A model generated the notes under the pieces. It was not told where the DNA came from. It searched no databases and was given only the letters and a program-made list of their open reading frames with translations. Both the position numbers and the translations under genes were made by a program. Shown here piece after piece: positions 9,934 through 40,231 of a stretch of DNA of 64,000 nt. The DNA lies in NCBI GenBank assembly GCA_902591925.1, contig CACJCN010000006.1, forward strand, positions 9,919 through 73,918. The letters run 5' to 3'. Each line of letters starts with the position of its first letter. The stretch's first letter is position 1. Source of the DNA: an uncultured SAR86 cluster bacterium. GTDB lineage: Bacteria; Pseudomonadota; Gammaproteobacteria; Magnimaribacterales; D2472.

Positions 9934-10001
9934 TTATATATAAACTAGCTGGATTATATATAATTTTGTAAATCATTACATTTTTTAAAATAAAGAGTAT
10001 T

Positions 10002-11909
10002 TTAAATTTCTAGGCCGGGAATAGTTACAGAGTCAATTGATAAAGCTTTCTTAATAATCTCATCCATTACTTCATTTACGTCTTCATCTTTTATAGTATT
10101 GAATTTGGATTGAAAAATAAATCTTATTCCAACTTTGATTTCTTTTGCAATATCATTTTTGTAATAATCAAATATAAATACTTCTTTAAGCAAATCATTT
10201 TCAAAAGATAAAATTGCCTTTTCTAATATTTTGCAATTTGAAAATTTTTTTATTGAAAAAGATAAATCTCTTGTGGAACAAGGGAAATCTGATATTTGAA
10301 TATACTTCTTACTATTAATATCAAAACAAACAGGATAGTCATCAGCATATTTAGTTTTTAAGGATGAGTCTAATTCTATTTCAAGATAAAATATTTTATT
10401 TTTTGATTTTGAGTTAATTTTTTCCCTAGATATTTCAACTATTTCAACATCTTTGCCAAGATTTTCATAATTTAAAAAATTACTAAGATACTCTAGATCA
10501 ATTTTTTTATTAAATTCTTTGTAATTCTTTCCAATTCTCCCGCTTGCAATTATTCCAATAACTCTTTTTTGTAAATCAGAATTTTTAACGTAAATGTCTG
10601 CTATCTCAAATAGCTTGATTATATCTTTTTGCCTATTTTCATTATAGATAAGATCATCTATGAGAGAGTCAAGAAGATCAGTTCTTAAGAAGTTTTTATT
10701 TTTATCCAGAGGATTATCAATGACAAATGAATTCTTGTTTTTTTTTGATGAAAAGGGATTATTTATGACTTCATAAAAACCCTTATCTATTAGTAATTTT
10801 TTTAATTTATTTTCATTGTTATGATTATGTCCTTTTGTATCAATACTAATCTTAAAGTTTTTTGTATTTATGTTGTCATAGCCTATAGCTCTAGCAATTT
10901 CCTCAGATAGATCATTTATATTTGATATATCATTTCTATAAGAAGGAACTAAAACAGAATTATCTTTAAATATGAAACCTAGTTTTCTGAGATATTCTTT
11001 ACATTTGATATCATCTAAATTCACTCCAAGGATACTTTTGATTTTTTCTATGTCGAAAAAAATCTTTTTAGAATTATGAGTTTTTGATTCTGAAAATAAC
11101 TCAACATTAATTATTTTTGTATGATTTTCAACAATATTTAAAAATCTTCTTAAAACATAATCGTGATTATTTTTGTCGGTATTTCTCTCAAATTTATAGG
11201 CAGCATCTGAAGTAATATTGTATTTTATTGGCCTTCCGAGTATTGCTTCAGGTTCAAAATATGCGCATTCTAAGAGAACATGTTTTGTTTTTTTGTTACA
11301 AGATGTATTCTTTCCACCAACAATTCCAGCAAAATTAATAACCTCCATATTATTATCTAAAAATACTAATTCATTTTCATCAATACAAATTTTACTACCC
11401 AACAAGGTTTCAAATTCTACTTTCTTGCTTAAAAAGTCTAGTGTTATAGGATCTTTTATTTTTAGAAAATCATAACAATGAGTTGGTTGACCTGTTTCAT
11501 AAGAAATAAAATTTGAAATATCTGTAAAAAAATTGATTTTTTTAAGATTTAAATCAATGAAGTAACTTTTTAAATCACCTTTATAATTTGAAGGGATATC
11601 TTCAATCTCTAATTTTAAAAAAGAAATATTACTACAAACTTTTTTTGCATTGTTATTGAAGGATAAAGAATAAGTCCTGATTTCCGGTTCATATATATCT
11701 TTATTGATATCAATTTCGTAAAACAATCTTAAATCTCTTAACAATCCATCAAGAGAGATACAATCTCCTCTGTTAGGCGTAAGTTCAAAGTTAAAAATTT
11801 CATCAGATATTTCATGTTCATGACCAAGTTGGAAAAATCTTTCTGACAATTCATTTATACTTGGTTTTGATTGAATATTTTCAACAAAATGTTTATGTGG
11901 AATCTTCAT
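10002..11909 (-). CDS. pheT: Phenylalanine-tRNA ligase beta subunit (short, 635 aa)
   Basis: TPNRGDC, GQPTH, LECAYF, VPSYRND..DL.EEIAR and C-terminal RDLSF anticodon-binding domain; follows pheS. Confidence 0.93.
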   Translation of the reverse strand: MKIPHKHFVENIQSKPSINELSERFFQLGHEHEISDEIFNFELTPNRGDCISLDGLLRDLRLFYEIDINKDIYEPEIRTYSLSFNNNAKKVCSNISFLKLEIEDIPSNYKGDLKSYFIDLNLKKINFFTDISNFISYETGQPTHCYDFLKIKDPITLDFLSKKVEFETLLGSKICIDENELVFLDNNMEVINFAGIVGGKNTSCNKKTKHVLLECAYFEPEAILGRPIKYNITSDAAYKFERNTDKNNHDYVLRRFLNIVENHTKIINVELFSESKTHNSKKIFFDIEKIKSILGVNLDDIKCKEYLRKLGFIFKDNSVLVPSYRNDISNINDLSEEIARAIGYDNINTKNFKISIDTKGHNHNNENKLKKLLIDKGFYEVINNPFSSKKNKNSFVIDNPLDKNKNFLRTDLLDSLIDDLIYNENRQKDIIKLFEIADIYVKNSDLQKRVIGIIASGRIGKNYKEFNKKIDLEYLSNFLNYENLGKDVEIVEISREKINSKSKNKIFYLEIELDSSLKTKYADDYPVCFDINSKKYIQISDFPCSTRDLSFSIKKFSNCKILEKAILSFENDLLKEVFIFDYYKNDIAKEIKVGIRFIFQSKFNTIKDEDVNEVMDEIIKKALSIDSVTIPGLEI

Positions 11910-12631
11910 TTAAATTGATTCAAAAAGTCTAGATTAGATTTGTAAAAATCTCGGATATCATTTACTCCATATTTAAGCATCGCAATTCTCTCAATTCCTA
12001 ATCCAAATGCAAGCCCAGAAAAATTATTTGAATCAATATTGCAATTCTCTAAAACAGTTGGATTTACGATTCCGCATCCCAATATTTCAAGCCACTTACC
12101 CTCTTTAGACATAATATCAACCTCAGCAGAAGGCTCTGTAAACGGAAAATAAGATGGCCTAAATCTAATCTTAGTTTCTGAACCAAATAAAGCCTGAATA
12201 ATGTCAAAAATTAAGTGTTTAAGATTTGAAAAACTAACATTTTCATCTACATAAATACCTTCAACTTGATGAAACATAGGAAGATGAGTCGCATCATCAT
12301 CTTTTCTATAGACTTTTCCACCAGAAATAAATGCTAAAGGAGGTTTTCTTTTTAACATACCTCTTATTTGAACAGGTGAAGTATGAGTTCTTAGAACATT
12401 GGTCTTATTACTGATATAAAATGTATCATGCATTTGTCGAGCAGGATGAGATTTTTTAATATTTAACATATCAAAATTATATTCTTCTGTTTCAATCTCA
12501 GGCCCACTAATTATTTCAAAGCCAAATGATTGCAAAAGATCCATAATAGAATCTTTAACTTGATTAATTGGATGATATGAACCTTTTTCTTCTATAAGTC
12601 TTGGAGCACTATGATCTATGGAATCTGGCAT
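11906..12631 (-). CDS. pheS: Phenylalanine-tRNA ligase alpha subunit (short, 241 aa)
   Basis: HPARQMHDTF, LRTHTSPVQ, FRPSYFPFTEPS, EILGCG and FGLGIERIAML motifs. Confidence 0.95.
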   Translation of the reverse strand: MPDSIDHSAPRLIEEKGSYHPINQVKDSIMDLLQSFGFEIISGPEIETEEYNFDMLNIKKSHPARQMHDTFYISNKTNVLRTHTSPVQIRGMLKRKPPLAFISGGKVYRKDDDATHLPMFHQVEGIYVDENVSFSNLKHLIFDIIQALFGSETKIRFRPSYFPFTEPSAEVDIMSKEGKWLEILGCGIVNPTVLENCNIDSNNFSGLAFGLGIERIAMLKYGVNDIRDFYKSNLDFLNQFK

Positions 12632-12642
12632 AATACCAGCGG

Positions 12643-12990
12643 CTAACTTGTTGCTATTTTAACAACCTTTCTAAAAGTTGAGTTGTCTGAAATAGCTAGG
12701 TCAGAGAGAATTTTTCTATCAATAATAATATTCTTTTTATTCATTGAGTCAACAAGTTTTGAATATGATACGCCGGCTTCCCTAGAGCCAGCATTAATTC
12801 TAGATATCCATAATGATCTAAAAGACCTTTTTCTATTTTTTCTATCTCTGAATGCGTACTGAAGTGATTTAATTTGAGATTGTTTTGCAGTTTTAAAAAG
12901 TCTGCTTCTGGCTCCATAATGACCTTTTGTAGATTTTAAAACCTTTTGATGTTTCGCTTTAGCTGTGACAGATTTTGTTACTCTAGGCAT
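12643..12990 (-). CDS. rplT: 50S ribosomal protein L20
   Basis: MPRV..., RSFRSLWISRINA, IDRKILSDLA. Confidence 0.97.
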   Translation of the reverse strand: MPRVTKSVTAKAKHQKVLKSTKGHYGARSRLFKTAKQSQIKSLQYAFRDRKNRKRSFRSLWISRINAGSREAGVSYSKLVDSMNKKNIIIDRKILSDLAISDNSTFRKVVKIATS

Positions 12991-12995
12991 ATGCG

Positions 12996-13190
12996 TTACT
13001 CATTGATTAATTTGGAAGCCATTTTCAAAACTGTTCCTGATAATTTGTTCAGGCCTCTATTATGACGCTTACGTTTAGTGGACTGTTTAGTAAGAATATG
13101 ATTTCTATTTGCGCTTTTGCTTTTTATAGATTTGCCAGTTTTTTTAAAACGCTTAGCAGCCCCAGAATGTGTTTTTAATTTATATCCCAT
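12996..13190 (-). CDS. rpmI: 50S ribosomal protein L35
   Basis: [21 protein letters not shown]. Confidence 0.97.
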
Positions 13191-14457: not shown

Positions 14458-15243
14458 TTATTCTTCCTGATAATATCTAATTCTTTCAATGTCATCCTCA
14501 ATAGTTTGTTCACCATATTGGATCTCAATAATATGGCATGGTTCATCATATGGATTAATAATTTGATGCCATGACTTTTTTTTTATAAATAAACTATCTT
14601 CGATTTTTAAATTAATTTCTTTAAAATTTTCTGGTTCTTTTTCACTGTAATTAACAATACATTTACCTTTACTTACAAACCATATTTCACTTCTTTGAAA
14701 ATGCCTTTGAAAGCTTAGTCCCTTTTTTGGATATACAATTAATTCTTTAACTTTGACATTAATATCGCCTGTATCTTCGAAAAGGTTGAAAAACTTTCCC
14801 CATATTCTGTCTTCATTCGAATATTGCCAATCTTTTAGGATCCAGCTTGAAGAATTGATCTTATCTTTCCCTCCAACTCCGAAGGCAAAGTTAATTCCTT
14901 TTACTTTCATTTCTGGTATGTTTTCTTTATTTCTGTCTCCGCCATTACAAAAAATAATCTCTTCTCTAGGGTTGAGTTTTTTTATTTTTTCTAAAGCATT
15001 TATGCAGCTTCCAATTTCATCATCCTCAAAATCTATGACACTATCAATCATGTATAAATTCTCTAGAATGCTCTTTCTCTCATTAAAAGGCAGTAAAAAT
15101 TTTCCTTTCTTCTTTTTGAGCCAATCGTCACTATTCAAAGCAACATAAAGCTTATCTCCTAATTTATAAGCTTCTTTGAAATAAGAAATATGGCCGGAAT
15201 GAACAGGATCAAATCCTCCACTTACAACAACTATTTTCTTCAT
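14458..15243 (-). CDS. HIGH-class cytidylyl/adenylyltransferase fused to a cupin (mannose-6-phosphate isomerase-like) domain
   Basis: True start MKKIVVVSGGFDPVHSGH (15243); C-terminal RIWGKF, LSFQRHFQRSEIW, IEIQYG..EDDIER cupin. Confidence 0.8.
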   Translation of the reverse strand: MKKIVVVSGGFDPVHSGHISYFKEAYKLGDKLYVALNSDDWLKKKKGKFLLPFNERKSILENLYMIDSVIDFEDDEIGSCINALEKIKKLNPREEIIFCNGGDRNKENIPEMKVKGINFAFGVGGKDKINSSSWILKDWQYSNEDRIWGKFFNLFEDTGDINVKVKELIVYPKKGLSFQRHFQRSEIWFVSKGKCIVNYSEKEPENFKEINLKIEDSLFIKKKSWHQIINPYDEPCHIIEIQYGEQTIEDDIERIRYYQEE

Positions 15244-15329
15244 AATAATTTTTGGTTTGATTATATCATCAAGAAATAATAAAAAAATCAGATATATGGT
15301 AACCAAAAAAATTTTAATTAACTTATAAT

Positions 15330-16133
15330 TTGAGACCCTTGATAGAAAAAAACAAACAGTTAGTTTCAATTGTGATGCCTGCTTATAATTGCGAGGAGAA
15401 AATACATCACGCAATTGAATCAGTAAAATCACAAACATATTGTAATTGGGAGTTAATAATTGTTGATGATTGCTCTAAAGATGAAACATTAAGAGTAATA
15501 GAGAACTATGCTAACTCTGATAAGAGAATATTATCCCTTAAGAATATACGAAATAAGGGTGCTGCAGAGTCAAGAAATATTGCAACAGATAAAGCATTGG
15601 GACACTATATAGCTTTTTTAGATTCTGATGATTTATGGTCAAAAGATAAACTTTTGAATCAAATTACATTTATGGAGTCAAATAGTTACGATTTCACTTA
15701 TACATATTATGAGGTCAAAAAGGAAGACCAAAGAAAAAGGATAATTTATAAAGCTCCAAAAATTCTTAACAAAATTAAAATGTCTTTCATGTGTCCAATT
15801 GGTTGTCTTACAGTTATGTATAATGTAAAAAAAATTGGAAAAATATATGCTCCAAAACTCCAAAGAAGGAATGATTATATCTTATGGATTGAAATACTTA
15901 GAAAATCAAAATTGGCGTTTTGCTTAAATCAGAATTTAGCAACTTACAAAGTTAATAATGCTGGTTTATCATCAAGCAAACTACTTAATATCTATTATTA
16001 TTTCAAAGTTATAAAATTATCTTACAAATATTGGTATTTAATACTCCCATTAACTACACCAATATATTTATTGCTAATACTTATAAAAAAAACAACACCA
16101 GAATTTTATAATATCATTATAAAAAATTTATAA
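15330..16133 (+). CDS. Glycosyltransferase family 2
   Basis: VSIVMPAYN, IIVDDCSKD, AFLDSDD, RRNDYILW. Confidence 0.9.
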   Translation: MRPLIEKNKQLVSIVMPAYNCEEKIHHAIESVKSQTYCNWELIIVDDCSKDETLRVIENYANSDKRILSLKNIRNKGAAESRNIATDKALGHYIAFLDSDDLWSKDKLLNQITFMESNSYDFTYTYYEVKKEDQRKRIIYKAPKILNKIKMSFMCPIGCLTVMYNVKKIGKIYAPKLQRRNDYILWIEILRKSKLAFCLNQNLATYKVNNAGLSSSKLLNIYYYFKVIKLSYKYWYLILPLTTPIYLLLILIKKTTPEFYNIIIKNL

Positions 16134-18547: not shown

Positions 18548-19438
18548 TCATATTTTATTTAAAACATTCTTAAGATGTAAGCCATAATTATTTGAAGGAT
18601 ATATATCAATAATTTTTGCAAATTGTTCTCTAGTAATCCAATTATTTTTAAATGCTATTTCCTCAATACAACCAACTTTGAATCCATGTCTTTTTTCAAC
18701 AGCCATAATAAAATTCGATGCCTCTAGTAGGGCATTAGGAGTTCCAGTATCAAGCCATACGAAGCCTTCACCAAGATTATTTAATCTCAATAGATCTTTT
18801 TTTAGATAGGACAAATTTATATCAGTAATTTCCAACTCTCCTCTTCTTGAGGGCTTTAGGCCTTTTGAAATTTTAATCACATTATTATCATAAAAATATA
18901 AACCAGTTATAACTTGATTAGATTTTGGTGAACTTGGTTTTTCTTCAATTGATAGAATTCTATCGTTATTGTCTAACTCAACAACTCCAAAGTCTTGAGG
19001 ATTATCTACAACACATGAAAAAATTGTGCCACCAGAATTAAAACTTGTAGCTTTAATTAATTTTTCTTGAAAATTATCACCATAAAAAAGATTATCACCA
19101 AGTATTAAGGCTACATTTTTATTTGAAATAAATTCTTCACCGATAATAAATGCTTGAGCTATTCCTTCTGGTTTTTCTTGAACTTTATATGATATTTTTA
19201 TTCCTAAATTGCTTCCATTGCCAAGCAGTTTTTTATAAATAGGCATGTGATCAGGAGTAGAAATAATTAAAATATCTCTTATCTTGGCCATCATTAATGT
19301 TGACAAAGAGTAATAAATCATAGGCTTATCGTAGATAGGAATTAATTGTTTGGATATTGCAAAAGTTGAAGGAAACAGTCTAGATCCGCTTCCACCAGCC
19401 AAAATAATACCTTTAAACAAATCATTACTATTCATCAT
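18548..19438 (-). CDS. rmlA: Glucose-1-phosphate thymidylyltransferase
   Basis: GIILAGGSGSRL, SKQLIPIYDKPM, LGDN, EKP, RGELEITD, WLDTGT. Confidence 0.96.
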   Translation of the reverse strand: MMNSNDLFKGIILAGGSGSRLFPSTFAISKQLIPIYDKPMIYYSLSTLMMAKIRDILIISTPDHMPIYKKLLGNGSNLGIKISYKVQEKPEGIAQAFIIGEEFISNKNVALILGDNLFYGDNFQEKLIKATSFNSGGTIFSCVVDNPQDFGVVELDNNDRILSIEEKPSSPKSNQVITGLYFYDNNVIKISKGLKPSRRGELEITDINLSYLKKDLLRLNNLGEGFVWLDTGTPNALLEASNFIMAVEKRHGFKVGCIEEIAFKNNWITREQFAKIIDIYPSNNYGLHLKNVLNKI

Positions 19439-20577
19439 TTTTTTAAAGAAGAATATATTTCTAATATTTTATTTGCTGTGACATCCCAATCGTCAATCTT
19501 GCGAGCTAAATCAGAAATTTTTTGACTCATATTTACTAAATAAAATTTATTCTCAATCATTTTTTCTATAGTTAAAGACAGAGCCTTTTCGTTTGCTGAA
19601 TCGAACAAATATCCCATTTCATTTTCAATAATTAATTCACTAAAACTTCCAATATCTGAAGCTATTACAGGAAGATTATACTCAAATGCATCTGCTAACA
19701 CACCACTTCCATCAATATGCAAATATGGCAAAACAACCAAATGTGCATTTTCAAATAAATCTTCTTTGGTGTTTTCGTCGATCCAACCAAAATTAAAATT
19801 AACATACTTGCCTAAATTATACTTTTTGGAAATTTCTAAGATGGAGTTCCTTTTAACTAATAACTTACCAGCAATATTTATATTTAATTGACTTAGAATA
19901 TTCTCATCTAAAAATCTTAATGATCTTAAAAAAATATCTACCCCTTTATACTTATTAATAATTCCAAAATATAAAATATTAATTTTTTTTCTATCTAAAT
20001 CACAATATTTTTTAGAATTAATCTTGCGGACTTTATTAAATAAAGGGTGATGAATTATAAAAATATTATCACTTCGTATATCATAATCATCCTCAAGTAC
20101 TTTTTTACTGTATGACGAGTGCACGATGCATAAATCATAATTTCTTATTAAAGATTTGAATCCAATTCTTTGTAAAAAATTGGCGCCTCCATGAAATGAC
20201 AATGTATTATGAATTGTGCAGATCACTTTACATTTTCTTTTATAAAGTTTTAAGAAAATATTATCAATCCACGGAAGTGGAGATATTTGAAAATGAAGAA
20301 TATCTACCTTATAAAAATTTACATGAAATAAAAGTCTTATAAGTCCAATAAAATGATTAATACCCTTAAGAAATTTCATTAAAGATCTCAAGTGCATTGA
20401 ATCGAATTTAGGTAACGGTAATGTTCCAAAAAAATTTAGATAGTATTTTTGTATATCCTGATCATCCTTTTTAGAGCATACAAGCTTAATTACGCAATCT
20501 TTTTTTATCAGAGAATCGCAAAGTAATTTCGTATACTGCCATGTTAGGCAGGCGCTATCAATAATTAATATTTTCAC
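19435..20577 (-). CDS. Glycosyltransferase family 4 (GT-B)
   Basis: FGIINKYKGVD, VVLPY...SGVLADAF...PVIASDIG. Confidence 0.85.
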   Translation of the reverse strand: MKILIIDSACLTWQYTKLLCDSLIKKDCVIKLVCSKKDDQDIQKYYLNFFGTLPLPKFDSMHLRSLMKFLKGINHFIGLIRLLFHVNFYKVDILHFQISPLPWIDNIFLKLYKRKCKVICTIHNTLSFHGGANFLQRIGFKSLIRNYDLCIVHSSYSKKVLEDDYDIRSDNIFIIHHPLFNKVRKINSKKYCDLDRKKINILYFGIINKYKGVDIFLRSLRFLDENILSQLNINIAGKLLVKRNSILEISKKYNLGKYVNFNFGWIDENTKEDLFENAHLVVLPYLHIDGSGVLADAFEYNLPVIASDIGSFSELIIENEMGYLFDSANEKALSLTIEKMIENKFYLVNMSQKISDLARKIDDWDVTANKILEIYSSLKK

Positions 20578-21512
20578 TTTAGAGTTGATATTTTATCAAG
20601 CCATATTTTTGAAGAACTCCTAAATATACTTGCTTTAGACGAAAAGTTTCTGTTGAAAAATATAAAAGATAACGATCTGAGAATTAAATACATTTTAATA
20701 TTATGTGTCCATTCAAGGATAGCAAAAAACTTTAAATTTGTATTTGGACAATTTAACTTTACAAAGAGTAATTTGCTTTTTACTAATAGGTTCTGAAAGT
20801 AATCTCTTTTATCAGAAATTTTAGAAGAGCTGCCTCCTCTAGTATGAAAAATTTTTGCGCCAGGTTCGAATACTAATTTCCAATTTTTTTGCTTTAATCT
20901 AAAAGCAAAATCTGCCTCTTCAGCATAAAAAAAATAATCCTCATTAAATCCATCCACATCTCTAAAAGCAGAATTTCGGACTAAAATTGCCCCTCCATCA
21001 AGATAATTTACAAATTTTATTTTTTTATTGTCAAAATACTTTAACTTAATGCGTTCAAATAAATTAATTAAAGAAGTTATAAAAAACAAATTATATAAAG
21101 CATCTCTAATGCCAGGAAAATTTCCATAACTTCTTTGCCAAGAATCATCATCATTAATTTGTTGGCCTCCTGCAGCTGCTATAGTGTCATCAGATTCAAT
21201 TATTTGTCTAAGAATATTAAGAGAGTCTAATTTAAAAATTGTATCTGGATTTGCAATCAAGCAATATTTCTCAATAATTTCATTCATGCCAATATTAACT
21301 GCTTTTGCATATCCAAGATTACTTGAGTTTTTAATAACTTTAATCATGGGAAAATTTTTTTCCACTATTTCGACAGTATCATCCTCAGAATCATTATCAA
21401 CAACAATTACATTGCCTATATTTTCTGAATTATTGATTATTAATGATTTAAGACAATCGAGAATATAACTATTGCAATTGTAGGTTACAAGCACAATACC
21501 AATATCTTTCAT
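20574..21512 (-). CDS. Glycosyltransferase family 2 (WbbL-like, possible rhamnosyltransferase)
   Basis: VLVTYN, VVDNDS.D, NLGYA.A.N.G, NPD, FFYAEEAD, H..GGSS. Confidence 0.85.
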   Translation of the reverse strand: MKDIGIVLVTYNCNSYILDCLKSLIINNSENIGNVIVVDNDSEDDTVEIVEKNFPMIKVIKNSSNLGYAKAVNIGMNEIIEKYCLIANPDTIFKLDSLNILRQIIESDDTIAAAGGQQINDDDSWQRSYGNFPGIRDALYNLFFITSLINLFERIKLKYFDNKKIKFVNYLDGGAILVRNSAFRDVDGFNEDYFFYAEEADFAFRLKQKNWKLVFEPGAKIFHTRGGSSSKISDKRDYFQNLLVKSKLLFVKLNCPNTNLKFFAILEWTHNIKMYLILRSLSFIFFNRNFSSKASIFRSSSKIWLDKISTLK

Positions 21513-21521
21513 AAAATAATT

Positions 21522-22358
21522 TTATACCTTTATTTTTCTTATAAATGGAAAAATTTTAAGGATAAAAGGAGCTACTTTTTTGAATAGCCTGTATTTTTTT
21601 AATTTATTACTAATATTGAATAATATTGAATTTAACGAGGATCTTTTCCTAAAAATCATTAAGTCATTTTCAAAAAATTTCATTTGATTTATAAAATAGT
21701 TATTATCTTTACAAAAATTTTCAAAATCATTTTTTACTAACATCTCTTTATAGTTATTAACTTCAGTTTTTTTTATGATTATTAACTTATTAAAACAATA
21801 TATCCATGGCACAAAATCTTCATTTTCAATTAAAAATCTACACACTCCTTCTGAAACTCCTGGAAAACCGGCATTAAAATAATCATCGACTGCGATAATA
21901 CCTTCATTAAGTAACGCATTCTTAGCTGTTAACAAGTCGTTATATGTCTCATCGGCGCTATGGCCACCATCAATACTAAAAAAAATACAAGAATTTGAAG
22001 TGTCACCAACAGAAAGTTCTCGACTAGGTTTTTCAATAATTTGTAATCCGCCATCCGAATTAAAAAATTTTAAATAATTTTTTTTGAAAATTTCTTTTGA
22101 GCCAAGACCAGAATTTGAAATATTTAATTCTTGTTGATCAAAAATATCATTGACTATAAGCTTATGTTTTTTTGGATCGATAAAAATTCCTAGCAACAAT
22201 GCAGATTTTCCATGATGGACTCCAATTTCAAAGATATTTCCAAATAGACCTTCTTCCCTTTGTAAGTTATTTAAGAAGTAGAAAATCCTAGCAGCATCTT
22301 GGTCAAACCAACCATTAATTGCCTTTGATATATTTAAATATTCTTCAAAACTTTTCAT
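21522..22358 (-). CDS. Class I SAM-dependent methyltransferase (Methyltransf_24-like)
   Basis: FEIGVHHGKS, IDGGHS..ETYNDL, GIIAVDDY. Confidence 0.8.
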   Translation of the reverse strand: MKSFEEYLNISKAINGWFDQDAARIFYFLNNLQREEGLFGNIFEIGVHHGKSALLLGIFIDPKKHKLIVNDIFDQQELNISNSGLGSKEIFKKNYLKFFNSDGGLQIIEKPSRELSVGDTSNSCIFFSIDGGHSADETYNDLLTAKNALLNEGIIAVDDYFNAGFPGVSEGVCRFLIENEDFVPWIYCFNKLIIIKKTEVNNYKEMLVKNDFENFCKDNNYFINQMKFFENDLMIFRKRSSLNSILFNISNKLKKYRLFKKVAPFILKIFPFIRKIKV

Positions 22359-22385: not shown

Positions 22386-23249
22386 TTACACACAATTATC
22401 TTTAAGTTTTTGTTTTTTATGTAATTTTTTTATATTTAAAAGACTTAAACAGCTTCTGAAAGCAATTTTAAATATTTCATCATTTTGATTTGATGTATTT
22501 ATAATATTTTCAATAGCCGTATTAATTAAGTTATACATAGGTTTTGAAGAGAATATTTTCTCATCCTCTTTAAAAAAATATTTTGAGTTATCATTGTTAT
22601 AAAAAATTATTTCTCTTTTCTTTTTATCAAAACCATTACCAGTTAATATCTTGATATCGATGGATGATTTATCTTTTAAATGAATGAACCACTTCTCTCC
22701 GATATTATTAACTTCTTTTAATATCTTTTCATAATGAATATCATTTAAAAAATAGTTTGCTATTCCAAGTGAATGAGGACCCCAGTCAAAAATAGGTTCA
22801 ATAAATTCTCTATACGGTCCTTTGCCGTAATCATAAATATGTATTTTTTTAATAGTCTTCTTATTAAGGTTATTAAGTATTTTTAAAAAATCATTTGAGA
22901 AAAAATGAAAATGATTAATAAGCATTCTCTTTGACTTTAATGAGTTTAGACTTTTATAAAAAGATTTCTCAGCCGAAGAGGTAAATAATGGTTTTTCTAA
23001 TATTAATTGTCCTTTAAATTCTTTTAGAGCTCTAACTATTTCGATTTGAACACTTGGAAGTGTTGATATGATTATTACTTGAATTTTGTTATTTTTTATA
23101 ATTTCATCTAAATAAAAAGACGGATTAATAGTTTTTTCGAGTATGTGTCTTGCACTTATATGGGAAGCTAAATTAGCTTTTGGATGAGATTTGATTGTAT
23201 TTAAATAATTCTTAGACCAGTGTCCTTTTCCAATAACAAGGAAGTTCAC
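22386..23249 (-). CDS. Gfo/Idh/MocA-family oxidoreductase
   Basis: N-terminal IGKGHWS Rossmann motif, LILEKPL, DWGPH; GTG start. Confidence 0.7.
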   Translation of the reverse strand: MNFLVIGKGHWSKNYLNTIKSHPKANLASHISARHILEKTINPSFYLDEIIKNNKIQVIIISTLPSVQIEIVRALKEFKGQLILEKPLFTSSAEKSFYKSLNSLKSKRMLINHFHFFSNDFLKILNNLNKKTIKKIHIYDYGKGPYREFIEPIFDWGPHSLGIANYFLNDIHYEKILKEVNNIGEKWFIHLKDKSSIDIKILTGNGFDKKKREIIFYNNDNSKYFFKEDEKIFSSKPMYNLINTAIENIINTSNQNDEIFKIAFRSCLSLLNIKKLHKKQKLKDNCV

Positions 23250-23254
23250 TATTT

Positions 23255-24310
23255 TTAAAATTCCTCCACCCAGTTTATTAAGCGTGAAACACCATCTTTC
23301 AATTTTACTATTGGTTTGTAGTTTAAATCATCAATTGCTTTTTGAATAGATGGGCATCTTCTGCTTGGCTCATCTTCTGGATAATTATCAGGATATTCTT
23401 TAATCTGAACATTGACCTCTCTAGGATGCACATCAACAAAAATATTTGCAAGTTCTAATGCAGATACTTCTGGCTCAGGATTACCTATATTGTATGCCTC
23501 TCCAGATATGCCATGTAAAAAAACTTTTATAAATCCAGTAATTGCATCAGTTATATAGCAATATGTTCTTGTTTGTTTTCCAGAACCATAAACTTCCAAA
23601 GATCTACCCTCTTTTGCATTAAAGGCAAAATTAGGCATTACACGATAGTCAGTTTTTTGCATACCAGGCCCAAAAACATTAAATGGCCTAATAACATTTG
23701 TATGCACATCCTCATAATTATTATAGACATATGCCAAAGTTTCTCCTGCGCGTTTACTTTCATCATAGCAGGACCTTGGCCCCATTGAACTCACATATCC
23801 TTTATATGATTCTTTTACTGGAATATTTTGTAAGTCAGGATCACCATAAATCTCACTTGAGCTAAAAAAAATATATCTAGAATTTTTAAGTTTAGCTAGT
23901 TCAAGAAGTGATTTTGAACCATTTATGGCAACATCAAAGGTCTGCATAGGTCTCAATTTATACTGAGCAGGACTAGCAATTCCAGCTGCATGAACAACAA
24001 AATCAATATTATCTTTAATATCAAATGATTGTAACTTTGACAGATCTAATTTTTTAAATGAGAACCATTTCTCATCATAACTCTCAATATATTCTCCAAG
24101 TAAGCCTGATGATACAAAATTGTCTACTCCAATTATTTTTATATTTGAACCATTTACAAGATTGGTTTGATTGAGAGTCTCTAAAAAATATCTTCCAAGA
24201 AACCCAGCAACGCCAGCAATAAAAATAGTTTTGTTCTCAAGAAATTTAATATCATCTTGAAGATTTTCACAAATTTCTTTTATGTCCTGATCCAAAAAAA
24301 ATGATTTCAT
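23255..24310 (-). CDS. NAD-dependent epimerase/dehydratase, UDP-glucuronate decarboxylase-like
   Basis: GVAGFLG, SSSEIYGDP, GPRSCYDESKRAGE, GKQTRTYCY. Confidence 0.8.
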   Translation of the reverse strand: MKSFFLDQDIKEICENLQDDIKFLENKTIFIAGVAGFLGRYFLETLNQTNLVNGSNIKIIGVDNFVSSGLLGEYIESYDEKWFSFKKLDLSKLQSFDIKDNIDFVVHAAGIASPAQYKLRPMQTFDVAINGSKSLLELAKLKNSRYIFFSSSEIYGDPDLQNIPVKESYKGYVSSMGPRSCYDESKRAGETLAYVYNNYEDVHTNVIRPFNVFGPGMQKTDYRVMPNFAFNAKEGRSLEVYGSGKQTRTYCYITDAITGFIKVFLHGISGEAYNIGNPEPEVSALELANIFVDVHPREVNVQIKEYPDNYPEDEPSRRCPSIQKAIDDLNYKPIVKLKDGVSRLINWVEEF

Positions 24311-25518
24311 TATTTAATTTGTTTTGGTGGAATTGGTTGATAGTGAGGAATCCCAAGTTGCTTTGTATACTCAAAAATTGATTCAATGTACTCATAAGCA
24401 AAAACTACTAATAAATCTGGCTTTTCTTTTAAAAGGTGGTCCTTGTTAACAATTGGAATATGCATGCCAGGACTATACCTACCAGCTTTTAAAGGACTAT
24501 CATCCACAACATATTTAATTTTATTAATATCAATGTTTGCAAAATTTGTAATTGTGGCTAGCCTTGCGGGGGCTCCATAACCGGCAATTGTGAGGTTATC
24601 TTTATTCAGTAAATCAACTAAATCTTTTGCATTTTTTTCAATTTCTTTTTGAAAATCATTTACATTGCTACTTTTAAAGAAATTTCTTTCAAGTTCAAGG
24701 AAATTTTTAACTGAATCATCAATTTTTAAATTATGATCTCTTTTCATGAATGATAGTCTTAATGATCCTCCATGAGGTGATATTTCTTTTACATTTGTAA
24801 GCACTAAATTATTTTCTTCAAAAATATTCTTCATTGAAGTTACGGAATAATAGAATGGCCTATCAAAATAAAATCTTTCAAACTGACATTTCTTGACGAG
24901 ATTGAGTAAATACTCAATTTCAATAAAAATTTCTCCATTATTAGAAATGAGATACTCCAAAGATTCTATGAAATCTTTTGGTTTTTCTAAATGAGTAAAG
25001 ATGCTTGAAGCTACAATTGCATCAGGCTTTCCATAGTTTTCTTTAATATATTTTGCTGAATCCATATTAAAAAAATCTACAATAGTCTCCAATCCTTCAT
25101 TATTAGCAATTTCTCCAACATTTATAGAGGGATCAATGCCAAGGCATTTAACATTATTATTCTTCAGAGGCCTAAGCAAGATACCATCATTAGAACCAAC
25201 ATCTAGAACAAAGTTAAAATCTAATAGATCTTTTGCAAAATCATCAAAATGTTTATTAAGCTCAGCATTTACAGAAGAAAGATAGTAGTAGTCCTCAAAC
25301 ATTTCAGATCGATCTATCATCTCATTTAGCTGTCCACAAAAACAATTTGAACAAATGAGTGCTTTTAAATGCCAAAATTTTTCTTTTTTAAAAGCATCTT
25401 TATTTGCAGGATATTTATTTGCAAGAGGTTGATTACCAAGATCTGCTAACACATTACAATCTGATCCGCATAGTTCACATTTTTTTTCAGTAGATTTTTT
25501 TTCTGGAATTACTTTCAT
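24310..25518 (-). CDS. NDP-hexose C-methyltransferase (Zn-binding N-terminus, class I SAM)
   Basis: CELCG..DLG.QPLAN, C..CFCGQL, DVGSNDG, FERFYFDR, HGGSLR, GYGAPAR, VDDSPLK.GRY.PG.HIPI. Confidence 0.85.
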   Translation of the reverse strand: MKVIPEKKSTEKKCELCGSDCNVLADLGNQPLANKYPANKDAFKKEKFWHLKALICSNCFCGQLNEMIDRSEMFEDYYYLSSVNAELNKHFDDFAKDLLDFNFVLDVGSNDGILLRPLKNNNVKCLGIDPSINVGEIANNEGLETIVDFFNMDSAKYIKENYGKPDAIVASSIFTHLEKPKDFIESLEYLISNNGEIFIEIEYLLNLVKKCQFERFYFDRPFYYSVTSMKNIFEENNLVLTNVKEISPHGGSLRLSFMKRDHNLKIDDSVKNFLELERNFFKSSNVNDFQKEIEKNAKDLVDLLNKDNLTIAGYGAPARLATITNFANIDINKIKYVVDDSPLKAGRYSPGMHIPIVNKDHLLKEKPDLLVVFAYEYIESIFEYTKQLGIPHYQPIPPKQIK

Positions 25519-39058: not shown

Positions 39059-40231
39059 TTAATCTCTTTTAAAAATATCTCTCGTGTAAATTATAGATTT
39101 ATCAAAATTTACCAAATCATCTGAAAATCTATTCGCAATTATTAGATCTGATTCAATAAAAAGCTCATTTAAACTATTTATAATCTTTAATGGTAAGTCT
39201 AGTTCATTGTTGTAGTTGGGTTCGTAAAGCAAGAACTCTATTTGAGAATCTTGAATGCTATTTAAAATGTCTATAATTGCAGAAGATCTAAAGTTATCTG
39301 ATCCAGATTTCATAGTCAATCCAAAAATCCCAAGCCTTTTTGGAGATTTTTTAAGAATTTGGCTCTTAATAAAATCTTTTCTAACAGAATTTGAATCAAC
39401 TATTGCAGAAATTAATTTCTGAGGAATATTCTCAAAATTTGACAATAGCTGTTTTGTATCTTTTGGCAAACAATAACCGCCATATCCAAAAGAAGGATTA
39501 TTATAATAATCTCCAATTCTTGGATCTAAGCTAATACCTGTAATAATATCTTTTGAACTTAAATCATTTATCTCTGCATATGTATCCAATTCATTAAAGT
39601 AAGAAATTCTCATAGCCAGGAAAGTATTTGCAAATAATTTTATAGCTTCTGCTTCGGTAGATTCAGTTAATAAAATTTCAATATTTTTCTTCAGAGCTGC
39701 TTTTGACATTAACTCTGAAAATTCTTTACCAACCTTATGCATATCTCCTACAATTATTCTTGAAGGATATAAATTATCGTATAGGGCTTTACCTTCTCTT
39801 AAAAATTCAGGTGAAAAATAAATATTCTCATAATTAAATTTTTCTCTTGCTTTTTTTGTGAAGCCAACAGGAATTGTAGACTTTATTATGATTTTGGCAT
39901 TGGGGTTAAATTTAATAATGTCATCTATAACCATCTCAACTGAACTAGTGTCAAAATAATTAGTATCTGGATTATAATTAGTTGGTGTAGCGATTATAAC
40001 GAATTCCGCATCGACATATGCCTGTTTTTTAGAGGAAGATGCAATAAGATTTAATTTTTTATTTTTAAAATATTCATTAATTTCATCATCAGCAATAGGT
40101 GAAATTCTTTTATTAATCATATCAATTTTTTCTTTGTTGATATCGAATAGGTGAACATTGTTACTTTGTGATAGAAGAATGGCGTTAGATAAACCTACGT
40201 AACCACTTCCAATAATAGATATTTTCTTCAT
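39059..40231 (-). CDS. ugd: UDP-glucose 6-dehydrogenase
   Basis: GSGYVG, IATPT, SPEFLREG, SFGYGGYCLPKD. Confidence 0.93.
   Translation of the reverse strand: MKKISIIGSGYVGLSNAILLSQSNNVHLFDINKEKIDMINKRISPIADDEINEYFKNKKLNLIASSSKKQAYVDAEFVIIATPTNYNPDTNYFDTSSVEMVIDDIIKFNPNAKIIIKSTIPVGFTKKAREKFNYENIYFSPEFLREGKALYDNLYPSRIIVGDMHKVGKEFSELMSKAALKKNIEILLTESTEAEAIKLFANTFLAMRISYFNELDTYAEINDLSSKDIITGISLDPRIGDYYNNPSFGYGGYCLPKDTKQLLSNFENIPQKLISAIVDSNSVRKDFIKSQILKKSPKRLGIFGLTMKSGSDNFRSSAIIDILNSIQDSQIEFLLYEPNYNNELDLPLKIINSLNELFIESDLIIANRFSDDLVNFDKSIIYTRDIFKRD

Follow-up and report, generated by a model that had tools for sequence, protein, structure and literature searches.

Three adjacent genes of a SAR86 cluster bacterium, lying in a 64,000-nucleotide stretch of DNA (the window), on balance probably form a complete, cupin-less copy of a widespread cassette for a C-methyl-branched pentose nucleotide sugar, judging from sequence comparison and gene context. 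A first-pass annotation had named these genes as a C-methyltransferase, a UDP-glucuronate decarboxylase-like SDR and a Gfo/Idh/MocA reductase, and all three are present, on the reverse strand. The first encodes a TylC3/TcaB9-type sugar C-methyltransferase (CMT) of 402 aa (24310..25518), recognised from Pfam domains and solved relatives and placed in what is termed here class A. The second (23255..24310) encodes a UXS-like extended SDR of 351 aa, a predicted NDP-glucuronate oxidative decarboxylase that would supply a 4-keto-pentose. The third (22386..23249) has a GTG start and encodes a short Gfo/Idh/MocA oxidoreductase of 287 aa, the predicted keto-reductase of the methylated intermediate. The stop codon of the CMT gene overlaps the start codon of the SDR gene (TAATG), and these two genes are thus translationally coupled. 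The SDR and Gfo genes are separated by 5 nt, and a further 27 nt separate the Gfo gene from the gene that follows.

The proposed route would begin with NDP-glucuronate made by Ugd, with UDP assumed as the nucleotide. The SDR would oxidise C4 with NAD+ and decarboxylate the product to an NDP-4-keto-pentose, and the coupled CMT would use SAM to add a methyl group to the carbon beside the keto group, most likely C3 given the homology with TylC3, TcaB9, KijD1 and MtmC. The keto group would then be reduced, either by the Gfo/Idh/MocA enzyme acting with NAD(P)H as a 4-ketoreductase, or by the SDR with its own retained NADH. The resulting NDP-3-C-methyl-pentose would be passed to a neighbouring cytoplasmic glycosyltransferase and into a Wzx/Wzy-made surface glycan. 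Each of these chemical steps is a prediction, as are the nucleotide and both the regio- and the stereochemistry. A methyl-branched pentose had also been suggested in the first-pass annotation. The coupling of the CMT to a decarboxylase-like SDR, on which that suggestion depended, is supported by the conserved gene pair, fusions, UXS residues and Arn-like relatives described below, while the product itself is still predicted.

The CMT has the three-domain architecture of TylC3, TcaB9, KijD1 and MtmC, enzymes of the mycarose, tetronitrose and kijanose pathways, in which methylation beside a keto group is followed by reduction or transamination. Its Pfam matches are the Methyltransf_13 Zn ribbon (PF08421, 50.1 bits), Methyltransf_23 (PF13489, 50.7 bits) and, as the C-terminal domain, Methyltransf_14 (PF08484, 108.5 bits). 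KijD1, MtmC and TcaB9 are the best solved relatives (PDB 5t6b, 4rv9 and 3ndi; E ~1e-49), with full-length alignments to KijD1 and MtmC. The SAM domain carries the motif VLDVGSNDG, and the Zn ribbon cysteines C14, C17, C56 and C59 are invariant across the class A alignment. TcaB9 residues Tyr76, His181 and Tyr222 are conserved as Y77, H176 and Y217, but the active-site set of the family is incomplete: in the motif FERFYFDR, Glu224-His225 of TcaB9 are replaced by Asp219-Arg220, both invariant in 12/12 aligned class A sequences. The roles of Tyr76, His181, Tyr222, Glu224 and His225 in TcaB9 are said to have been worked out by Bruender and Holden in 2012. The lack of the canonical Glu-His pair had been overlooked in the first-pass annotation.

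On the basis of this replacement, the window CMT is assigned to a distinct class, described here for the first time as class A (broad placement only was taken from a quick IQ-TREE tree and from a FastTree tree without support values). A cupin partner is found in 0/52 class A loci, compared with 38/59 loci of the canonical class; the cupin has a Pfam match to Cupin_2 only, with no match in PDB sequence and NCBIfam searches. Since a His that is important in TcaB9 is missing, the chemistry of class A may differ from C3 methylation, and the enzyme, with no proton abstraction of its own, might use the enolate that decarboxylation leaves behind. It is a tentative proposal, possible and yet rather doubtful, that the cassette yields, in abundant lineages, marine and uncultured ones among them, a sugar class unreported from any organism and that the Asp-Arg pair is a second catalytic solution which dispenses with the cupin. 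Literature searches, with thin coverage of subscription journals, found no account of the cassette, no CMT acting on a 4-keto-pentose and no C-methyl pentose in a glycan, the last of which counts against the pentose route.

The same replacement could be read as a sign of methylation at C5, where a methyl group would take the place of the lost carboxylate in a NovU-like reaction, giving a 4-keto-6-deoxyhexose without a 4,6-dehydratase. The CMT family includes the C5-methyltransferases NovU, CloU and CouU, and in class A an Arg has taken the place of the His base. In addition, decarboxylation leaves a C4-C5 enolate (PMC3438964). Such a reaction would, however, be an expensive way to reach a common intermediate for which a single dehydratase suffices, in a genome that already has RmlB, and we regard it as very improbable.

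In the pentose route, the SDR would be the decarboxylase. It has the extended-SDR GxxGxxG signature (GVAGFLG), the motif GPRSCYDESKR, and a triad, Ser151/Tyr182/Lys186, which aligns to T118, Y147 and K151 of human UXS1 (hUXS1). S152, E153 and R318, present without exception in 15 subfamily members, correspond to Ser119, Glu120 and Arg277 of hUXS1, residues distinctive of the UXS group (PMC3438964). Decarboxylation is predicted because these catalytic residues are conserved. Human UXS1 is also the best solved relative (E 6e-52, 180 bits; runner-up 90 bits), and among solved structures the SDR is nearer to it than to ArnA (71 bits) or HldD (47.5 bits). Counting against the pentose route, the protein falls under every NCBIfam equivalog cut-off (e.g. 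PRK11908, 93.5 vs 294; ArnA, 81.4 vs 777); its subfamily is separate, with a specific N-terminal extension of ~25 aa. Sequence does not predict whether an enzyme of this group releases the 4-keto sugar or completes the UXS cycle, nor the ratio of products (PMC10338323).

There are precedents for UXS-group SDRs whose 4-keto-pentose is taken by a second enzyme, namely the ArnA C-terminal domain, CalS9, AtmS9, RsU4kpxs and EvdS6 (PMC10338323). The likeness to the Arn pathway extends to gene context, as genes for a formyltransferase and a DegT aminotransferase accompany members of the SDR's own clade: unfused SDR-formyltransferase-DegT sets (L050, L060) nest within the clade, as do DegT-FMT-CMT-SDR sets (L043, L063). 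These sets need a released 4-keto sugar, which supports 4-keto use in the clade. The window differs from the Arn pathway in having no aminotransferase, formyltransferase, ArnC or ArnT (Pfam and NCBIfam scans of window ORFs gave no sugar aminotransferase of the DegT type and no formyltransferase), and the capturing enzyme would be the CMT. Apiose synthesis by UAXS and eurekanate synthesis by EvdS6 with a TPP enzyme likewise start from UXS-group oxidative decarboxylation of NDP-glucuronate. However, a single enzyme creates the apiose branch by contracting the ring, and the eurekanate branch is a two-carbon unit from the TPP enzyme, whereas the branch proposed here would be a SAM-derived methyl group added by a separate enzyme.

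The Gfo/Idh/MocA protein has the Rossmann domain, EKP motif, conserved His and fold of its family, although its Pfam match is weak (GFO_IDH_MocA, PF01408, 27.7 bits against a cut-off of 24). It matches PDB 3c1a by sequence (E 7e-8), and its AF2 model (pLDDT 85.5) was matched by Foldseek to biliverdin reductase, 3c1a and KijD10 (TM 0.72-0.75) and to GnnA (TM 0.66). The entry 3c1a is an unannotated crystal structure of one family member. The protein retains GxGxW, EKP (E85-K86-P87) and DWGPH (H159); across 22 cassette-linked homologues, G7, G9, E85-K86-P87 and H159 do not vary, and the window copy has all the family-invariant residues.

The known NDP-sugar enzymes of this family, KijD10 and GnnA, act at C3 and not C4, which counts against the pentose route as drawn above and leads to a different order of events. 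The SDR would then be an ordinary UDP-xylose synthase and the Gfo enzyme would oxidise the pentose at C3, in the manner of GnnA and WlbA with hexoses, after which the CMT would alkylate C2 or C4 and the keto group would be reduced back, giving a C-methyl pentose branched elsewhere. Both C3-acting enzymes are among the fold matches, the top NCBIfam match of a related Gfo family is UDP-GlcNAc 3-dehydrogenase, and the SDR retains the equivalents of Glu120 and Arg277, residues with which human UXS1 holds on to the intermediate up to its reduction. A Gfo gene is also almost always present in class A, lying within 2.5 kb of the CMT gene in 24/29 evaluable loci. Many cassettes and fusions nevertheless lack one, including 21/47 evaluable class B loci; a free 4-keto sugar is required by those variants of the SDR clade that are Arn-like or include DegT, and the known relatives of the CMT all use 4-keto substrates. 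We consider this order of events unlikely.

Gene context was examined by collecting related loci, seeded separately on the SDR and on the CMT, with ORF calling, clustering and tblastn. The CMT gene adjoins the SDR gene, usually directly upstream, in most of 80 SDR-seeded genome loci, whose hosts include Alphaproteobacteria, Prochlorococcus, Pelagibacteraceae, CPR phyla, DPANN archaea, Actinomycetota and Myxococcota, among others. Cultured carriers of the cassette are Mycobacterium sp. E796, Rhizobiales AFS095166 and AFS079129, and Sorangium sp. So ce1078. The recurrent gene order is [GT2]-[cupin]-CMT-SDR-Gfo. Recurrence of this adjacency across phyla puts it far beyond chance. Among metagenome loci seeded on class A CMTs, the SDR gene is adjacent in 28 and near in 2, while in 9 (8 distinct) there is none for at least 1.3 kb on either side.

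The two proteins are also found as one. CMT-SDR single polypeptides occur in two loci (L058, L062), and there are four class A fusions in both orders, three CMT-SDR (P0124-P0126) and one SDR-CMT (P0123). However, in 51/81 long forms the CMT is joined to an SDR of another type, probably a reductase. Fusion alone does not mark the SDR as a producer of keto sugar. In several cassettes a UGD gene belongs to the gene run, for example as CMT-SDR-Gfo-UGD (L098) or CMT-SDR-UGD (L038, L077, L085). Carriage of an NDP-sugar dehydrogenase is not discriminating (7/10 other class A genomes vs 11/14 controls, the genomes being incomplete).

In the window itself, rmlA, rmlC, rmlD and rmlB lie 3-6 kb downstream of the trio in the same co-directional island. 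With rmlABCD as little as 3 kb away, which weighs against the pentose route, the CMT could instead take dTDP-4-keto-6-deoxyglucose or its 3,5-epimer from RmlB/RmlC and give a 3-C-methyl-6-deoxyhexose, with the SDR and/or Gfo protein as ketoreductases only. To our knowledge, all characterised relatives of the CMT do use 4-keto-6-deoxyhexoses. Some class A CMTs without a UXS-like SDR sit near other SDRs of dehydratase type, one of them of the GDP-mannose-dehydratase type, and the many fusions to non-UXS SDRs point the same way. A glycan-directed parallel is the CDP-cereose operon of Bacillus cereus, reportedly described by Li and co-workers in 2017 in J Biol Chem, which also joins a keto-sugar generator to a TylC3-type CMT and a ketoreductase. 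It is said to comprise a nucleotidyltransferase, a 4,6-dehydratase, the C-methyltransferase and a 4-reductase, and reportedly differs from the trio in proceeding from CDP-glucose through the 4,6-dehydratase to a 3-C-methyl-6-deoxyhexose, with a reductase that is not of the Gfo/Idh/MocA family.

Against this, conserved as well as fused CMT-SDR pairs occur in places that lack a neighbouring 4,6-dehydratase. A true 4,6-dehydratase is found in the flanks of 0/40 class A SDR-linked loci, and a single class B locus (L056) is the exception among all SDR-adjacent cassette loci. Furthermore, the SDR has the Ser/Glu/Arg of the decarboxylase group, reading SSE and not the dehydratase-type Asp-Glu; the rml set is self-sufficient for dTDP-L-rhamnose; and the CMT is translationally coupled to the SDR, not to rml. 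The Rml-derived 6-deoxyhexose, which the first-pass annotation had offered as its alternative, is hence disfavoured by the flanks of the cassette loci, and we regard it as improbable. The C-methyl pentose is the best reading of the sequence data. Its synthesis would depart from the TylC3-type pathways, since a uronate decarboxylase, not a 4,6-dehydratase, would provide the keto sugar, and the class A clade has Asp-Arg for Glu224-His225 and a surface glycan setting in place of an antibiotic one.

The uronate for this pentose is probably supplied by ugd (39059..40231, reverse strand), whose place in the same island, as previously annotated, is confirmed by sequence (NDP-sugar dehydrogenase subfamily, 310.6 bits against a cut-off of 189.8; E. 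coli-type Ugd, E 4e-147). It is the sole NDP-sugar dehydrogenase gene found in the genome, which is 93% complete and has one C-methyltransferase. Two points count against the proposed route: ugd, 13.5 kb upstream of the trio, could instead provide for a TuaG-like transferase, and no galU was found that would account for the glucose donor and its nucleotide. In a sister SDR clade elsewhere, the SDR gene sits between a glucose-1-phosphate cytidylyltransferase gene and UGD; for a CDP-linked route, this cytidylyltransferase was searched for in the present genome and none was found.

Directly upstream of the CMT gene are gmhA and a GT9-like gene, and the island also has a kinase, an adenylyltransferase and gmhB. 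The trio might on this account modify the island's ADP-heptose, and the SDR does weakly resemble heptose 6-epimerase (73.8 bits). It is, however, far nearer to UXS (180 bits) than to the solved HldD, and elsewhere heptose genes do not accompany the cassette, a gmhA match being present in only 1/80 loci. We reject a heptose substrate as scarcely credible.

Downstream, the genes that would use the methylated pentose are co-directional with the trio. A GT2 (20574-21512) and a GT4 glycosyltransferase (19435-20577), both on the reverse strand, are candidate transferases for the product. The polyprenyl-phosphate GT2 (ArnC/DPM1-like) that accompanies the cassette elsewhere was not found in the window, where a TuaG-like GT2 came closest and no branch leading to a lipid carrier was found. 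The gene 27 nt beyond the trio encodes a Methyltransf_24 methyltransferase (21522..22358, reverse strand), possibly an additional tailoring enzyme, perhaps for O-methylation. Its membership of the cassette is doubtful, because none of the 80 genome loci showed such a gene beside the cassette; the protein has no PDB relative.

The existence of cultured carriers and of a crystal structure for one family member (PDB 3c1a) makes the proposal open to direct testing. The two CMT classes, one with Glu-His and a cupin and the other with Asp-Arg and no cupin, would offer a natural experiment on enolate formation and methylation. If correct, the pairing of a uronate decarboxylase with a C-methyltransferase and a reductase would be a new route to branched sugars. 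It would also place a new type of monosaccharide on very abundant microbes, including streamlined marine bacteria, Prochlorococcus, Pelagibacteraceae, CPR and DPANN. C-methyl pentoses would escape standard composition analyses, and such sugars could affect recognition by phages and grazers and the degradability of marine polysaccharides.

The trio lies on the minus strand and comprises a C-methyltransferase (CMT; 402 aa, 24310-25518), a short-chain dehydrogenase/reductase (SDR; 351 aa, 23255-24310) and a Gfo/Idh/MocA protein (287 aa, 22386-23249). The CMT stop codon overlaps the SDR start (TAATG), and 5 nt separate the SDR and Gfo genes. The first-pass annotation had read these genes as a CMT, a decarboxylase-like SDR and a Gfo/Idh/MocA reductase, together predicting a C-methyl-branched sugar; coordinates, domain matches and homologues bear out every member of the trio, and the gene list of the 14-42 kb island confirms that ugd is in the same island. 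The best-supported route, as predicted chemistry, runs from ugd through the SDR and the CMT to a reduction. NDP-glucuronate would be made by ugd, of which one copy was found in the genome, and oxidatively decarboxylated by the SDR to a 4-keto-pentose. SAM-dependent methylation would follow at a carbon adjoining the keto group, taken as C3 by homology, after which the Gfo protein, or else the NADH of the SDR itself, would reduce the keto group. A heptose as substrate is unlikely, and methylation at C5 or with decarboxylation is chemically conceivable, without support. Neither a CMT acting on a 4-keto-pentose nor a C-methyl pentose in a glycan was found described in the literature searched; known 4-keto-releasing decarboxylases are listed in PMC10338323.

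Among solved proteins the SDR matches human UDP-xylose synthase (UXS) best (180 bits), ahead of a second match at 90 bits and ArnA at 71 bits. Ser119, Glu120 and Arg277 (human UXS1 numbering) distinguish UXS-group decarboxylases from epimerases (Eixelsberger et al., PMC3438964). These align to S152, E153 and R318 of the window SDR, which are invariant, with the triad S151/Y182/K186, in 15/15 subfamily members. The motif preceding the Tyr is SSE, at the place where 4,6-dehydratases carry Asp-Glu. The SDR scores under every curated equivalog cut-off, and its subfamily is large and unnamed (~350 aa, with an N-terminal extension).

The CMT has the full TylC3/TcaB9 architecture and can be aligned over its whole length with KijD1, MtmC and TcaB9 (E ~1e-49). 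Cassette-linked CMTs split into two classes. Class B, the majority, carries the canonical Y-H/D-E-H motif, corresponding to Tyr222, Glu224 and His225 of TcaB9. Class A, which includes the window CMT, forms a clade with strong support (SH-aLRT 100). Its motif is FERFY(F/L)DR, in which Asp replaces Glu and Arg replaces His; both residues are invariant in 12/12 aligned sequences, and all class A loci from the metagenome scan have the motif. His225 is reportedly important for methyl transfer in TcaB9. Among evaluable loci, a cupin gene is nearby in 38 of 59 of class B and in none of 52 of class A, and a Gfo gene is nearby in 24/29 of class A and 26/47 of class B. In the SDR tree (FastTree, without support values) partners of the two classes are interleaved, roughly by taxonomy, so the two CMT classes seem interchangeable in one slot.

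The Pfam match of the Gfo protein is weak (27.7 bits). GxGxW, EKP and DWGPH, the sole invariant positions among 22 cassette-linked homologues, are all present, and KijD10 and GnnA are among the Gfo/Idh/MocA structures that the protein's AF2 model (pLDDT 85.5) matches. PDB 3c1a, a structural-genomics "putative oxidoreductase" from Magnetospirillum magnetotacticum, matches a cassette Gfo copy at 166 bits (next PDB match, 58) and by sequence is a true member of this family, which gives the third cassette enzyme a solved structure with no function assigned. The Gfo/Idh/MocA enzymes known to act on NDP-sugars do so at C3, and a 3-keto route, with the steps in another order, is therefore possible.

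A scan of species-representative genomes seeded with the SDR subfamily gave 80 loci from very diverse phyla, and all their flanking ORFs were analysed by tblastn and clustering. The recurrent block is [small polyprenyl-phosphate-transferase-type GT2]-[~146-aa cupin]-CMT-SDR-[~309-aa Gfo/Idh/MocA], and a UGD gene lies in the same run as several cassettes (e.g. L098, L038, L077, L085). In a CMT-seeded metagenome scan, free of bias from the SDR, class A CMTs directly adjoined the SDR in 28 loci and lay near it in 2; in 9 (8 distinct) it was not found. Most of these 9 loci retain a Gfo gene, and SDRs of other kinds, including one of GDP-mannose-dehydratase type, occur in some of them. No true 4,6-dehydratase was found in the 40 class A SDR-linked loci, so that within the conserved block only the SDR is a candidate for generating the keto sugar. 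The 3-C-methyl-6-deoxyhexose that the first-pass annotation offered as an alternative, made from the Rml intermediate, is a possibility, given that rmlABCD lies nearby and that a UXS-like SDR is missing beside some class A CMTs; against it stand the conserved residues of the SDR, the CMT-SDR coupling and the cassettes without a dehydratase.

The CMT-linked SDR clade also holds DegT-formyltransferase-(cupin)-CMT-SDR loci and Pelagibacteraceae SDR-formyltransferase-DegT loci. The latter, L050 and L060, carry at 10001-13000 an unfused counterpart of the Arn set (UXS-like SDR, formyltransferase and DegT aminotransferase), without a CMT; the formyltransferase resembles the ArnA N-domain (130 bits). 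Each of these two arrangements requires that the 4-keto sugar be released. In a sister clade (L066, L072, L075, L078, L079, L083, L086; ~10001-12300 of the 21-kb loci, elsewhere in the shorter L066, L072 and L075) the SDR is flanked on one side by a glucose-1-phosphate cytidylyltransferase (TIGR02623, 458 bits) and on the other by a UGD-like dehydrogenase, a setting that hints at a route from CDP-glucose via CDP-glucuronate to a CDP-pentose, of which we know no description.

In two archaeal loci a single polypeptide comprises both CMT and SDR. Of 81 CMT fusions obtained by searching for long forms, 29 bear UXS-like signatures; beyond these, the UXS-like SDR of the class A fusion P0123 has a Tyr motif that does not fit the search pattern. 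Class A CMTs are fused with UXS-like SDRs in both orders (P0124-P0126 and P0123), indicating independent fusion events. However, the fusion evidence for CMT-SDR coupling is weaker than it looks, since most of the 81 bear other SDR types, probably reductases. In many fusions (P0132 and ~20 others, 845-854 aa) an RmlD-like SDR precedes the CMT, P0171 (805 aa) is fused to a DegT-type aminotransferase, and the source name of the fusion P0156 also mentions a cupin.

The surface-glycan island (14-42 kb of the AT-rich window, G+C ~29%) is on the minus strand almost throughout. Besides the trio it encodes rmlB, rmlD, rmlC and rmlA, GT4, GT2 and GT9-like genes, gmhA, gmhB, a heptose adenylyltransferase, a kinase, a Wzy_C protein, wzx, wzz, two methyltransferases, neuC/B/A, ugd and galE. 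A Methyltransf_24 protein (21522-22358, minus strand) directly follows the trio; no solved relative was found, and across the 80 genome loci, the set compared, it was not seen beside the cassette. A TuaG-like GT2 (15330-16133, plus strand, 215 bits) is the sole plus-strand gene noticed within the island. It shares ~100 nt at its start with the 5' end of ORF 14458-15438 on the minus strand, so one start was probably set too early. A TuaG-like transferase such as this may be what ugd serves, instead of the trio. In the source genome (1.2 Mb, 93% complete) no galU over cut-off was found, despite ugd and galE, nor any glucose-1-phosphate cytidylyltransferase; the one gene of glucose-1-phosphate nucleotidyltransferase type detected there is rmlA. 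The window yielded no lipid-carrier GT2 of the type accompanying the cassette elsewhere, and what the trio makes is probably incorporated straight into the Wzx/Wzy repeat unit.

No class A CMT was found in the rest of the genus, the source genome alone having one, and the best relative of the SDR within the genus is just 38% identical; the trio is thus specific to the strain or species, within an island that varies. The pathway module itself is real, conserved and uncharacterised; it is built from familiar enzyme families and is open to direct testing.
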